A stretch of DNA of 61,768 nucleotides from Raillietiella orientalis (lineage: Eukaryota): NCBI GenBank assembly GCA_036172245.1, contig JAYWIR010000064.1:496001-557768 (forward strand), in the 5' to 3' direction. Below, piece by piece: positions 22,399 to 59,790 of the stretch (positions are counted from its first letter, which is position 1; the number at the start of each line of letters is the position of its first letter). The notes under the pieces were generated by a model that was not told where the DNA came from, did no database searches, and saw nothing but the letters and a program-made list of their open reading frames with translations. A program made the position numbers and the translations under genes.

Positions 22399-23099
22399 TA
22401 AAAAATTTCATTGTCTTAACAATATGATGAGAAAAGAATTACTTTCCAACCCAGTTTTTAGTTACTGATTTTGAATATGATTTTTAAACCACATTCCGCT
22501 TGCAAGCTTTTGGTTCAATTTATCAACATATATTTGAACAGTTGAAAAGCTTGGTAGGTAATGGTCTAAGTATGAACATCATGCATACTATTAGAATACA
22601 CAGTGAGAGCACATGGAAACACCTCAAAGACCTCAAGGTGATTTGATGGATGCCTAGGAAAACAATCACTTCGTGGTTTAATGTTATTCAACATTACTGA
22701 TGCCCCAAAGTCAAACATCTTCAATGGTAAAATTCATCTTACTTGATAGTGGGATAGGTTCTTATTCTTTATGTACTAAGTACTTTTAGGAGAACAAGAA
22801 CAATAATTACTATCAATCCATATTGGAAGGGTGAACAGTAAATTTTGACCTCATATCAAAGGGTAAACTCCGGAAGATACAAAAAAAATAACTAAAAAAT
22901 CCTATGCCAAAATTGGTTAAAAATTCTTTAGAGCCATTCTTTCCTTGCTCAGTTATCTGTCGTTCACTAAGGACCAAATTCGGGAATGAGCATTTACAAC
23001 GATTTTTCCCAATTCGAAAAGCGGTAGGATAGTTTATGAAAATAGCTCAGCACAACAAAACTAAGCAAGAGATAGTTCAGTGTCACAGACAAAGAGAAG

Positions 23100-24700
23100 C
23101 CCGTAGCCCGGTTCACAGTTCTCTCACACTTTTCACTGCGCGATGGTCTCTGCTGTACTGGGTCTCCCTTGCAGTCGGCCAGTCTCTTGCAACCTTCACC
23201 TTAGAAAGGAATCCTCCACGGTTTGCTCATACCTGCTTCGTGATCAGTCCTGTGAGGATTCCACGGCTACCACTATTCCTCTTTGTCGGAGCTTCCACTT
23301 TAGCACGCTGCTCGTGACATGGAAAGAGCCTTGACCGAGAAAGTTATATCAGGGAATCGAACGATCTTTCCCTTCCTCTCGAAGCATTCACTCAGAATTT
23401 GCGTCCTGATCTTATCCTGCAAACTTGCAGCCTTCCTCATCATTTTCCAACCCTGGATCAAGTTCGCAGGTGAACATTGAGAATTGGGGTGAGCTTGCTC
23501 TGCATACTTCGCAGAGCTCGTTCTGAAAGTTCCTTGTCCATTGCCGACGTTTTCATGCCACGCAAGCAAAATAGGTAATAGAAGAGCTTCAGGAGATCAT
23601 CTTGAATGTTTAATGCAGTTACAACTTACCAACCGATGTTCCAATCGCTTTGAGTTGACAAGGACTGTATGGTATAGGTGGACGGCCTCATTTGGGATTT
23701 CCTCACCTGTGTCGCGTCCCCCAGTGCCATCCTTCAGGTTTGATTGTCATACCAGGCACTAGATGTCGTCTTGATCTTAGAAGAAATATCTTGTCTTGTG
23801 GGCATTTGTTTCTGTATTCTTTTGCTATAGTGGAAGACTCATCTCGAAGTTCTCTTCAACTCATCGCAAACTGTTCCAATCTTCAGTTGGTGGTCTTAGG
23901 CAGATCTATAGTTTCGTTGTTAAAAGAAATAGTAAACCATGTTTATGGAACGGGAAGGAATCACCAGAGTTAGTTCTTCCCACAAATCCTTGCTCTGGGG
24001 AAAACACTTTCAGCATGTTTATCGGCTCTTGTTTCCTCGACTACGTAGAATCAGTGCTCATCCGCTGGTCTATCTTCGACACTAATTATGGCACGAGACC
24101 ACTTGAACTGTTGGCCGGATTGGATCAGTCCTTCCGAGCAGCGAAGGGTCATTTTCTCCAGTTAGCTGTGATTTTCAGGACTTGCTGACAGTCCGGGAGC
24201 TGGATTGCATCTTCCATCATCTATCATCTCTGCATCTCTGCACCATTGTCACTCCTCGGGTGCTATAGGTAAATGTGTTTCACGTCCATGGTGCTGTTAA
24301 AAGATCCTTCTTTGTACACGCCTCAGATGGTACTTTATTTTGTGGTTTAATGGGTAGAAGGTGATCCAAAGAGGATCATGGGAAACAAGACGCTGTTCTA
24401 CAAGTAGGTCTTGTGTTTCAGTCAAAGATCCAATCGGTGCAATTTGGTGGCTCCCTCTCTAGTCTGCCCTAGAATTTCCTTGCCCTACATTCTGCATGTC
24501 GAGGAGTCTTTGTGTATTCTCAAGTACTCGATGTCGTGAAGCAAACGGAATTCCTGAAGGTCTTGGAAGAACGGGACGGAACCGTGAATGCTATCAGGAA
24601 AAGTCCAAGCGGAGTGAAAAGTTACAGAAGTGTGGGAGGCAGGCTTGTGAATGCGTGCCTTGTGGAGAGAAACCATGAAGAGCTCCCCAGAGAATACACG
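23100..24700 (-). mobile_element. Highly degraded L1/Tx1-like ORF2 3' region
   Basis: Stop-ridden frame with post-RT-like text (EYLRI...KLHRLDL*LKHKTYL*NSVLFPMILFGSP) and an ILTGLITKQV*ANR end resembling the IWxxRN terminus. Confidence 0.4.
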
Positions 24701-56944: not shown

Positions 56945-57680
56945 TAGATCCCACATACCACAGGTCGATCTCCTCCTCCCCGACCTGTAGCTTGTGGGGT
57001 AGCCCACCCTCGGCACGGACCGTCACGCGCGCAGCGGCGTGTAACCCAGGATATTGAGTTTAGCCTACAACGCGTGGACGGTCCCGAATTTCTCAAGGGA
57101 TTCCCTTACGGCGTGCTTCGCCATCCTCATCGTAATGCCGGTCAGGCGGACAACGATCGAATTGTCCGCTGTGAACGGGAAGATCCTTTTCCCGTTCACG
57201 GTCACCGGCAGGCGGAGCAGCTGTTGAGCCATCCCTGCAGACCTGCAGTTCAGCTCAACCAGCTGTCTGCCACTTCTTACGGAAAGCCCGAGGACTTCGT
57301 CCTCCGGGACTTTCAACTTTTTGAATTCGGTGGCAAAAGACCGCAAAACCGCGGGGGAGTACAGGCCACCTACCTTGTATAACAAGGCCGGGTTATACCC
57401 GTCGGCCATGTAAGCCCGCTGTTCCTCTGCGGGGGGCGGCGCAGGCGCCGCCACCACCGCGCTCCAAGCCCTCGCCGGGGCGGGGGACGAATCCGTGGGG
57501 GAGATGGCCCTCACATCCATGGGTTGGGGGGACGAGGCTCGCTCGCCCCCCTTGGCCGTTTTGGCGGCATCCTCGGGCATTTCTGCCCAGGAACAACCGC
57601 GCTGGAAACACCGAAACCACTCGAGAAAAACGGTTCTGCGGAGAACCACAAAAACGCGTCTTCCCGGAAGGTGATCCGCC
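56945..57680 (-). mobile_element. Tx1/L1-type 5' UTR and ORF1 N-terminal half
   Basis: ATG 57580: MPEDAAK...ARAWSAVVAAP...GYNPALLYKVG...SGRQLVELNC...LPHKLQVG. Confidence 0.85.
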
Positions 57681-59790
57681 TTCACATCCGGATGTGCCGG
57701 AGCATTTATTTCACAGAAACAAAAATACAAACAATTGTCGCGTGGCGAACCCGAAGGTCCACCACACCAAAACAGCTTGCCTGGTGCCGGTTGACAACCG
57801 GAGAGGTCCTTCCGATGCGCGGGGGTTGGGAAAGAAAAAACAAAAACAAACCAAAAAGTTCAAATGTGGAGGGAGGGAAAAATATTTTAGGGGTGGGAGG
57901 GCAGGGAAGCGATCACTGTGCGCGCGGATAGGTCCTCTAGATCCTATTCAGGATCCGGACAAGCTGAGTCCTCTCTGCGCCTAAGTGGCGCCATTTGCAA
58001 ACCTCGCACGAAAAGGCGAGTCCAACGTAAGGCGTTGCCGGTAGGTTGGCGCCTTCTTCTGGTGGCGTTCCAAGCAGCCACGATTCCTCGAATGCAGCAG
58101 AGGACTGCTACACAAGCGGACGGGGACAAGGCGTCACGACAGAAGAGGCGCCTGATAACGTCCTTCGGGCCGCAAAAGAGCCGCAAGTCCAAAATCGCCG
58201 CAAAACGATCCCATAAGGGGCGGAGGGCGCTACACTCAAGAAGGTGGGGAAATGTCTCTTTTTCCCGCACCGGTCGCAATAGGGATCCACAGCCGCCCGG
58301 GTTGTGTGATGCAGGCGTGCTTTGAATGGTAGTCCCCAGAGCACCACAAGCAACGCCACATCCTGCCATTTCAGGGGGAGGGATGCACTGTTCCAGGACA
58401 CTGGGGGCCATTTCATCTTCTCCGGAGATAGTCCGAGTAGCTCGCCCCAGCGTCGGATTCCGTTGGACGGGACAGTCGGGGTCGCAGCGTCCGCAAGCTG
58501 CCGAGATGTCCACGCCTTGATCGATTGTATCCTGCCTTCAATGGTGCAGGACACGGTCCATTTCCCCTCCTCGCTACTGTCCCTGGCGTTAACAAGGAAG
58601 GGCAGCACTGGGGCAAGGGGGGTTATCAGAGCCCACAGAAGCTGGTCGTGGGACTGCACGATCTCCTGCAGCTTCCAGCGGGCGTGCCTTTGCAGGCAAG
58701 TGTTCCTTGTGCCCGCCGGAACGTGGATCTTTTCCCAGGTGGAGACTGACTCGTGCAACCAGGCAGAGTAGTTCCCTGGGAGGCAGGAGATCCGAGCGTT
58801 CTCCCGAACCACAACGGCCATGCGTCGCAGGTGACAGCCACAGTGTGCTCGTCTGCCGACGCGCCAACAGAAACGACAAAAGTCTGCCGGATCCGCAGGC
58901 TCGTTGGGTCAGGAGGCGTGCTGGAACGCACCACGGCGTGTCCCACAAGTCGGCCGCAAGGGCGAGAGTCCGAAATCGTAATTGTATTTCCATGCGCTCC
59001 AGCGTAAGAACGCAAAGTCCACCGTCCTTACGTGGAGCGCACAAGTCTTTGAGCCTCACACAGGACCTCCCTTTGCCCCAAAGGACTGTCCTCAGGAGGC
59101 CCGCTGCTCGTTTTCGAATAAAATAAGGGCGGGGCACACAAAAAGTAGGGGGCGAAGGAGAGGGGCCGCATACGCGTTCCACACCGCGGCCCGTTCCTGC
59201 AAGTAGAACTTGCCTTCTTGGAATGGACCGATCGCCAACGCTGCCTTTTGGAGACGGTCGGACCAGGCTTCTGCTGCGCAGAAGTCCCCCAATGGAACGC
59301 CAAGGTACTTGAAGCACCTGCCCGAGGGGATCCCCAAGAGGATCCAGTCCGACCGTCCAGCCCACGCCGAGCCGGTACAAGTTATGGACGACTTCGCCCT
59401 GTTCACCTCCAGGCCCGTCCCGCGGCGCAGCAACTCGAAGAAGTCCTCGAGCGCACTCGCCGGGGTGGACCCGGGAAGCAGCAGCAGAAGATCGTCTGCA
59501 TAGGCCGACACGGCAGGCGTGCCGGCACACGAGCTCGGCAGGGTTGCCAGAGTTACCCTATATGCCCTCAGCACCAACTCGAAGTAGATGCTGAAGAGCA
59601 AGGGGCTCAGGCTGTCACCCTGCCGGATGCCGCAACACACTGGCACGCCGTACACGTGCCGGCCGCTGAAACCAATATTTATTGACGAGTTGCGCCAGCA
59701 GAAGCGCAGGTAGAACTGGAGCACGGCCGGGAAACCCATGCGTTCCAGGAGCTCCGAAAGGAGTTCCTGGTCGACGCAGTCGAAAGCTTT
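57681..59790 (-). mobile_element. Tx1/L1-type ORF2 (RT, zf-RVT) and complete 3' UTR
   Basis: KAFDCV, GIRQGDSLSPLLF, YADD, GLEVNRAKS, FKYLGVP, LCAPRKDGGL and CDRCGK/ETFPHLLEC; a few frameshifts. Confidence 0.93.

Follow-up and report, generated by a model that had tools for sequence, protein, structure and literature searches.

Among described systems, the clusters formed by the L1-type LINEs Zepp and ZeppL in green algae resemble the locus studied here in that they consist of self-inserting elements, represented mostly by their 3′ ends, and are associated with contig breaks (PMC8226300). Uni-strand piRNA clusters offer a second comparison. In mosquitoes, core clusters mostly begin directly past an upstream gene (10.1101/2022.08.22.504762). 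In Drosophila, flamenco and flamenco-like clusters carry TE fragments mostly on one strand, and real clusters were recovered there by screening sequence alone for strand-biased TE tracts, the loci being at least 227 kb long and centromeric and telomeric regions being left out (PMC10643416). With respect to individual elements, Utopia of the NeSL clade is an RLE non-LTR element flanked on either side by U2 snRNA sequence, and LIN9/24/26 are given as 28S-specific (PMC4640811).

Layout of the locus

The window, i.e., the whole stretch of 61,768 nucleotides of Raillietiella orientalis DNA that was analyzed, ends with the last base of its contig (61768). Its repeat-rich tract follows two plus-strand genes:

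21088..22033 (approximate coding span), plus strand: TMED10-type (emp24/gp25L) gene, from the sequence and Pfam EMP24_GP25L on two pieces
22168..22402, plus strand: DMAC1 gene, from the sequence and Pfam DMAC1_Dmo2 on exon 1 (E 1.6e-10)
22900..26600: GC-raised single-copy DNA, no second copy found in this genome

Both genes had been named in the first-pass annotation and were recovered with their plus-strand exons, as was the abrupt rise in GC content after DMAC1: in 500-base windows, GC climbs from 0.34 to 0.48 over the interval 22.5–23.0 kb. The DNA at 22.9–26.6 kb matched no Pfam family in six frames, no other copy was found in the search of its own genome, and searches of PDB, plasmids, phages, Atlas and viral contigs, each with some of the frames, gave no relative. 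One match of a frame from this region among 1.84 billion representatives consisted of 52 short stretches and was judged an artefact. No tRNA genes were found, and the miRNA-family matches at 43442–43503, which scored far below the cut-off, were rejected as a plain inverted repeat. The host protein KAT7 showed 45–70% identity to at least 120 proteins, most of them at 60–67% and spread over a wide range of animal groups, and pointed to no single lineage.

LINE copies and their age

Non-LTR elements were mapped with profile HMMs trained on copies from elsewhere in the same genome. The following LINE copies, for which the label L1/Tx1-like is used loosely, were identified:

26640..30110, minus strand: three old L1/Tx1-like fragments (ORF2 end, ORF1, ORF2) on the HMM map
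35117..35509, minus strand (model positions 958–1088), and 35803..36289, plus strand (to model position 1203): old LINE ORF2 pieces, by HMM
38107..38554, minus strand: LINE ORF2 fragment, by HMM
43657..45195: single 5′-inverted LINE copy, 3′ part (43657–44228) on the minus and 5′ part (44673–45195) on the plus strand
49286..50751, minus strand: LINE 3′ half in the right end of a hAT-like element, with a 13-base target duplication
55649..56139, minus strand: 5′-truncated LINE inside the 3′ region of an RLE element, with a target duplication of about 11 bases
56950..59790, minus strand: young head-to-tail LINE pair (ORF1 start; ORF2 3′ half)
59791..61768, plus strand: two nested ORF1 copies, continuing to the contig end

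An intact relative encodes Exo_endo_phos, RVT_1 and zf-RVT domains (Pfam) and hence the APE and RT of an L1-type element; the best PDB match of the LINE protein was human L1 ORF2p, and none of 7,996 candidates was a named relative of ORF2. The two parts of the copy at 43657..45195 map 2, 10, and 34 bases apart in the intact relatives L053, L025, and L050, respectively, and the copy has duplication-like flanks of 11–12 bases. The layout at 35117..36289 fits one 5′-inverted plus-strand copy, the two pieces of which may derive from the same family. Within 26640..30110, where the fragments are 70–75% identical to their best sampled copy, the 5′ region of the ORF1 copy is directly adjoined, at about 28393, by a degenerate 3′ end, with a 3′-end motif at 28422.

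The copies become younger towards the contig end. Identity to the best sampled relative was 65–78% for the LINE pieces between 26 and 51 kb and 87–98% between 55.6 and 61.8 kb, with 87–91% for the minus-strand pair and 95–98% for the plus-strand ORF1 copies; a Utopia copy (84%) and the 28S-linked RLE element (65–70%) described below fall off this trend. The junction of the pair at 57675 was spanned in seven sampled loci. The first plus-strand ORF1 copy lies antisense within the RT motif of a minus-strand copy, and this junction recurs, to the base, in 7 of 23 matching copies. The recurrent junctions at 57675, 59792, and 61230 indicate repeated insertion into existing copies in the last 5 kb; repeated self-insertion does not hold for the older part of the tract. 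All 20 sampled loci around the young LINE family were LINE-dense, with a GC content of 0.55–0.61.

RLE elements and their target flanks

Three features relate to RLE elements:

33365..34175, minus strand: 5′-truncated copy of Utopia (RLE) between two stretches of U2 snRNA sequence, by flanks and HMM
55030..55541, plus strand: 28S rDNA piece (Rfam), target flank of the RLE element on its right
55542..56923, minus strand: RLE element antisense to 28S, its 3′ region interrupted by a LINE

The first-pass annotation had listed Utopia families as well as captured rRNA and snRNA pieces. Of the two RLE fragments, only one is a U2-flanked Utopia; the other belongs to a family antisense to 28S. The idea of captured cargo was rejected since the U2 and 28S sequences represent the target sites flanking these two elements. 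Both U2 flanks lie in the window, the U2 match itself scoring below the Rfam gathering score (E 0.016); the 5′ flank recurs in four sampled loci (L025, L028, L029, and L074) and the 3′ flank in L028. In contrast to the described Utopia elements (PMC4640811), the copy is truncated to a short relic within a piece of U2, and its assignment to this clade is putative.

At the 28S piece, which lies on the plus strand as claimed, the break base was identical in all four loci aligned. A better-preserved relative of the 28S-linked element had R2 proteins as top match (E 2e-58), making R2 the closest among solved structures. The element shares with the 28S-targeting NeSL relatives R5/LIN9 and with R2 the insertion at a fixed 28S site, but it lies antisense to 28S, and its 3′ junction is slightly upstream of the R2 site.

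Duplicated blocks, hAT-like element and latrotoxin-like gene

Much of the remaining tract is duplicated from other repeat regions:

30219..33364: multicopy unit, 73% identical to a contig designated C7
about 32820–33380, minus strand: decayed piece of a CAP (cyclase-associated protein) gene counted to this multicopy unit, CAP1 match with E 3.6e-6
38804..42850: piece of a unit of about 8.4 kb with tandem copies at the end of another contig (C10)
46590..50799, plus strand: relic of a hAT-like DNA transposon, by an HMM of its own copies and its ends
51080..54990, plus strand: broken latrotoxin-like ankyrin gene of GC 0.36, its frame disrupted by numerous stops and shifts

The 8.4-kb unit was also present on five further contigs (C31, C117, C58, C15, and C1). 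Its piece in the window contains a minus-strand LINE fragment (38804–39500) and a plus-strand Lys/Glu-rich frame, and the junction at 39500 was spanned in five loci.

The hAT-like and latrotoxin-like pieces were confirmed on the plus strand. Dispersed copies of the hAT-like element are 70–76% identical and a terminal repeat was seen; the putative label hAT is taken from motifs and from this repeat. A better copy had no match in Pfam or PDB, and no 8-base target-site duplication was found. Three contigs (C40, C13, and C32) carry the empty site of the LINE at 49286..50751, and on the same three contigs the latrotoxin-like gene adjoins the same hAT-like end. This multi-copy broken gene joined to one hAT-like end was the side finding of most interest. 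The gene matched delta-latroinsectotoxin with E 8e-22, and nine of its stop-free pieces matched ankyrin families (Pfam). For a symbiont origin of this gene, the searches gave no support: phages gave no bacterial source, a protein search none among 201 candidates, GTDB one weak match of 38 residues among 88 candidates, and Atlas only matches below 0.9.

Strand skew of the non-LTR insertions

The strand skew between 23 and 59.8 kb is real. The profile HMMs placed 13 non-LTR fragments on the minus and two on the plus strand, and the minus strand holds 11,884 of 12,894 non-LTR bases (92%; hand-set boundaries), whereas only 56% of the bases are minus when all identified pieces are pooled. The first-pass count was of about fifteen minus-strand fragments with only weak plus-strand relics. 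The mapped fragments collapse to about ten insertion events, nine minus and one plus, with the three fragments of 26640..30110 scored as one event and the relic at 44673–45195 being the inverted 5′ half of the minus-strand copy at 43657–44228. The resulting p value of 0.021, like the other event p values, is uncorrected for the right boundary, which was chosen by eye. This boundary is post hoc: 59.8 kb is a fixed insertion site 2 kb before the contig end, and directly beyond the claimed end of the skew lie two strong plus-strand ORF1 copies (59960–61768). Adding the hAT-like element gave 9:2 (p = 0.065), and counting on to the contig end 9:3 (p = 0.146); with the 35.1-kb piece as a separate event, the ratio was 10:1 (p about 0.012, hand arithmetic).

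As controls, we used 13 stretches around matches of the same families, counted as fragments rather than events, some of which had also supplied HMM training sequences. Three of the eight controls with at least five fragments were equally skewed, with 86–100% on one strand (0:9, 6:1, and 6:1); these stretches could themselves be piRNA loci. Our starting view that nesting alone accounts for the skew held only in part. Nesting links a few fragments, but adjacent fragments in the LINE nests of this genome agreed in strand in 74 of 139 pairs and were opposite in 65, so nesting alone yields no long one-strand runs, and the same-strand events of the tract belong to several families and ages, most not being nested within one another. 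Of 14 pairs of family 3′ ends lying at most 40 kb apart, 10 were co-oriented (p 0.18, not significant), an estimate drawn from 100 of 209 sites; at this rate, nine of ten events has a probability of 0.14.

Mixed strands (8:7) at the start of contig C9 bear on a further explanation, a telomere-type array in which LINEs would be added at a chromosome end in a fixed direction, comparable to HeT-A/TART of Drosophila. The contig end, the minus-strand copies with their 5′ ends facing it, and the head-to-tail pairs would suit such an array. It is nevertheless very improbable, as besides the mixed strands the outermost and youngest copies are plus, the family also makes islands inside large contigs, and no telomere-like array was present among the eight matches listed.

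Comparison with piRNA clusters and transcription units

In a uni-strand piRNA cluster, the kind of locus proposed in the first-pass annotation, Pol II read-through of the TMED10/DMAC1 end would give a plus-strand precursor and antisense piRNAs against LINE and RLE elements, with antisense insertions being selected. We consider this a possible but rather unlikely explanation. Besides the nine antisense events out of ten, to which the minus-strand CAP piece can be added, it is favored by the start of the tract about 0.6 kb past a plus-strand gene and by two PIWI-clade genes in the genome (contigs C35 and C75), which resemble Piwi structures much more closely than Ago. A repeat tract just past a same-strand gene with an antisense excess is the likeness to the mosquito read-through clusters; those, however, are defined by small RNAs and enriched in antisense viral fragments (10.1101/2022.08.22.504762). 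The flamenco-type clusters measure 227–1,085 kb (syntenic set) and are Gypsy LTR-driven (PMC10643416), in contrast to a 37-kb tract of LINE and RLE copies with 43% recognisable TE cover. Further points against a cluster are the sense orientation of the hAT-like element, the strand flip at 59.8 kb, and a canonical AATAAA overlapping the DMAC1 stop codon (22397–22402). The hallmark cargo of described clusters was not found either: 388 stop-free frames of at least 55 aa contained no LTR/Gypsy domain in Pfam, a search that could miss decayed pieces, antisense Gypsy LTR enrichment was not seen, and no viral pieces were identified in the tract, of which 22.9–26.6 kb matched no known family. This sequence evidence weakens the argument for a piRNA cluster but does not remove it.

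In mammals, LINEs in transcribed regions show an antisense excess. The tract might lie in a plus-strand transcription unit (read-through, a lncRNA, or a large intron cut by the contig break) from which sense insertions were purged through poly(A) or splice interference, with no piRNA role. The AATAAA at the 3′ ends of the LINE family and the direction of the upstream genes agree with this explanation, which we regard as improbable: Pfam searches of stop-free frames found no plus-strand exon in the tract, the hAT-like element and the two LINEs at the end are sense, and 25 AATAAA hexamers persist on the plus strand against 17 on the minus strand, i.e., there is no depletion on the proposed transcript strand.

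A proposed margin of a LINE nest

The tract is best read as ordinary repeat DNA, and we favor, with a probability of roughly 55%, the ageing margin of an island of nested L1/Tx1-like LINEs with a modest, largely chance strand skew; this reading needs no strand-selective function. It builds on the youngest copies at the end, the recurrent fixed junctions and the duplicated large blocks, and the direction of the two RLE elements is set by their U2 and 28S targets. The genome would contain many islands of nested, site-preferring LINEs, the assembly breaking in the young core of this one. Older relics would accumulate because gene-poor repeat DNA presumably tolerates insertions and duplicated blocks, and the minus skew would result from about ten events, from the choice of end point, and from neighbouring copies being co-oriented to some extent. 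Against this stands the nominal significance of nine in ten events.

Compared with Zepp/ZeppL, the host is an animal, several families and many islands are involved, and insertions occur in both directions; the tract would be a decayed mixed margin. The assembly has 491 contigs, and several LINE islands per large contig argue against a strict Zepp-like organization with one cluster per chromosome.

As a caution, counting fragments exaggerates strand bias in places where LINEs are nested, have inverted 5′ halves, or bring target flanks with them. More speculatively, and in our view doubtful, a read-through cluster at the rim of the nest, in an invertebrate lineage that is poorly sampled, may archive antisense copies of mutually targeting LINE families, the margins being co-opted as a family-wide silencing memory and the other one-strand tracts of the genome being further such clusters. 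If the tract were a plus-strand cluster, read-through uni-strand clusters would extend beyond flies and mosquitoes, and their cargo here would be LINEs instead of Gypsy or viral sequences.

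Setting and element map of the tract

The left 22 kb of the window is AT-rich. At about 23 kb the GC content steps from 0.34 to 0.48, and it climbs to 0.57-0.61 over the final 5 kb; patches of 0.40-0.60 are also present further left on the same contig, C64. The window's right edge is the end of this contig, in an assembly of 491 contigs and 210 Mb. A short 79% direct repeat (18393-18465 and 22713-22782) flanks TMED10/DMAC1 on both sides. The KAT7-type gene is similar to proteins of many groups of animals to roughly the same degree, which places the host among animals in general.

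To the right of 22.4 kb there are 388 stop-free frames; in these, Pfam identified RVT_1 in one, zf-RVT below the cut-off in two and ankyrin families in nine. Because Pfam alone detected so little, profiles were made from better copies in the assembly for ORF1, ORF2, two families of RLE elements (the other non-LTR type) and a DNA transposon. An intact relative of the LINEs encodes an endonuclease, an RT and a zinc finger, and its nearest solved structure is human L1 ORF2p; these LINEs are probably L1/Tx1-like, a label used loosely here. The profile map contained 13 minus- and two plus-strand non-LTR fragments at 23-59.8 kb (raw binomial p 0.007) and two further plus-strand fragments beyond 59.8 kb (13:4, p 0.049).

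Features of the window and related loci in the assembly
Left 22 kb: genes of the KAT7, COG8/Dor1, TMED10 and DMAC1 types
28393-28422: LINE 3' end, AATAAA plus hairpin-like motif
30.2-33.4 kb: second multicopy block, containing a CAP piece
38804-42850: piece of an 8.4-kb unit in tandem at the end of contig C10 (C10:4962-5002k, loci L041-L044), with copies on several contigs
46590-54990: hAT-like end plus latrotoxin-like gene; also C40:220.9-225.3k, C13:3194-3198k and C32:2167.6-2169.9k
49286-49315: LINE 3' end, same motif
55030-56923: RLE family antisense at one 28S base; also loci L077, L078 and L083, four loci with different 3' tails
55650-55677: LINE 3' end, same motif
57681-57710: LINE 3' end, same motif

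The LINE families end in AATAAA and a short GC-rich hairpin-like motif, without a poly(A) tail. A 491-base piece at 45868-46358 shares 99% identity with another stretch of its contig, C64:350639-351129, and probably represents a recent insertion or duplication.

Composite and duplicated sequences

The first-pass annotation had listed captured rRNA and snRNA pieces. U2 sequence flanks the RLE copy at 33383-34140 on both sides, and related RLE copies also have U2 flanks; this copy thus shares the pattern of U2 snRNA on both sides that PMC4640811 gives for Utopia. The 28S piece breaks at an identical base in all four aligned loci (window, C83, C72 and C31), followed in each by the reverse complement of an RLE 3' end with differing untranslated tails. 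Because of this fixed break base and the adjoining RLE 3' end at each locus, the plus-strand 28S piece and the minus-strand RLE element are one unit, and the notion of capture was abandoned for both kinds of piece. Beside the 28S-linked element on C83, a frame at L077:2009-2725 resembles, by eye, a replication/helicase protein of small DNA viruses.

The latrotoxin-like gene proved to be real: a 142-residue piece matches four latrotoxin structures (E 8e-22 to 2e-19) and nine pieces match ankyrin families, in a gene broken many times. Since the same hAT-like end precedes it on three other contigs (75-83% identity), it came in or spread within a larger block. This old composite may have been duplicated as a block or carried as cargo of a transposon. 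Additional pieces occur on C50, C106 and C12. Its GC content of 0.36 and G skew of 0.19 would fit an endosymbiont gene; phage, protein, bacterial-genome and Atlas searches found no bacterial or phage relative.

Within the 8.4-kb tandem unit are a LINE fragment and two frames, one rich in Lys/Glu and one bearing CAP_N. The 22.9-26.6 kb stretch is single-copy in the assembly, without an assigned family, and is possibly viral- or symbiont-derived; by eye, its frames are protein-like but broken (minus strand at 23-24.9 kb, plus strand at 25-26.2 kb).

From fragments to insertion events

Several fragments could be joined into single events. The minus-strand copy at 57681-59790 meets the ORF1 copy (56950-57660) in the latter's 5' region, a junction spanned by seven sampled loci; an older pair at 28393 has the same layout, without a second example. 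In three relatives, the counterparts of the minus-strand piece 43657-44228 and the plus-strand piece 44673-45195 are separated by just 2, 10 and 34 bases. Because of this near-contiguity and duplication-like flanks of 11-12 bases, they are best read as a single 5'-inverted copy with its 3' end on the minus strand, which therefore leaves one plus relic fewer. Twin priming is the mechanism for such 5'-inverted LINE copies. Related short, MITE-like inverted repeats lie at 43442-43503 and 44374-44444, the latter within this copy's spacer. The pieces 35117-35509 (minus) and 35803-36289 (plus) mirror the layout, with decay too great to prove a common origin. The LINE at 49286-50751 interrupts the hAT-like end; a 13-base duplication accompanies it, and the corresponding sites on C40, C13 and C32 are empty. 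The LINE at 55649-56139 lies within the RLE element's 3' region with an 11-base duplication. By a grouping that is our own judgement, about 10 retro events resulted, nine minus and one plus (p 0.021); including the hAT-like element gave p 0.065, and extension to the plus nest at the contig end p 0.146.

At 59791-59793, a plus-strand LINE starts within the RT motif DLHKAFD of the minus copy. Among 23 matching copies (>84% identity), seven have this insertion at the identical position, one carries another about 10 bases away and 15 are uninterrupted. Given this recurrence, the boundary at 59.8 kb is the first flip in a nest of LINEs alternating in strand. All 20 loci fetched around the young LINE family are such nests; their 3' flanks can be sorted into a small number of sequences that recur.

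Genome-wide, the 3'-end motif of the LINE family occurs 98 times forward and 111 times reverse. As controls, 13 non-randomly chosen stretches of 20-60 kb were scored by fragments with the same profiles; five with <5 fragments were set aside. Three of the remaining eight were 86-100% single-strand (0:9, 6:1, 6:1) and five were mixed (6:4, 3:7, 4:4, 2:3, 8:7); the window scored 87% by this measure. Of the 14 pairs of motif sites ≤40 kb apart, 10 agreed in strand (p 0.18; from the 100 listed of 209 sites, one near-duplicate dropped), as did 74 of 139 pairs of adjacent fragments in 10-kb loci. At these agreement rates, the chance of nine of 10 events falling on one strand is 0.14 or 0.03. The nominal p of 0.02 for the event skew is weak.

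Interpretation of the strand skew

Of the proposed strand-biased tract, the skew itself stands, but it shrinks to 9:1 in about 10 events and its end point belongs to the nest. That the tract is a uni-strand piRNA cluster, as originally proposed, we regard as unlikely, although two loci in the assembly are much closer matches to PIWI proteins than to Argonautes, and the minus events are of several families and ages and mostly not nested in each other. The tract begins about 0.6 kb past DMAC1, on the strand that would render the LINEs antisense. Mosquito core clusters mostly originate by read-through from an upstream gene (bioRxiv 10.1101/2022.08.22.504762), and true Drosophila clusters have been found from strand bias alone (PMC10643416). 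However, of the cargo typical of those clusters, no Gypsy piece was identified in the 388 stop-free frames scanned with Pfam and no viral fragment was identified in the tract, and its TE density of 43% is not high. Loci L066 and L067 are extra decayed copies of an Ago2-like gene, one adjoining a LINE-like frame. A plain transcription filter as the source of the skew appears less probable still. There is no new kind of system in the tract; it is most economically explained, with a probability that we put at roughly 0.55, as the margin of a LINE nest that has decayed and is modestly skewed in strand.
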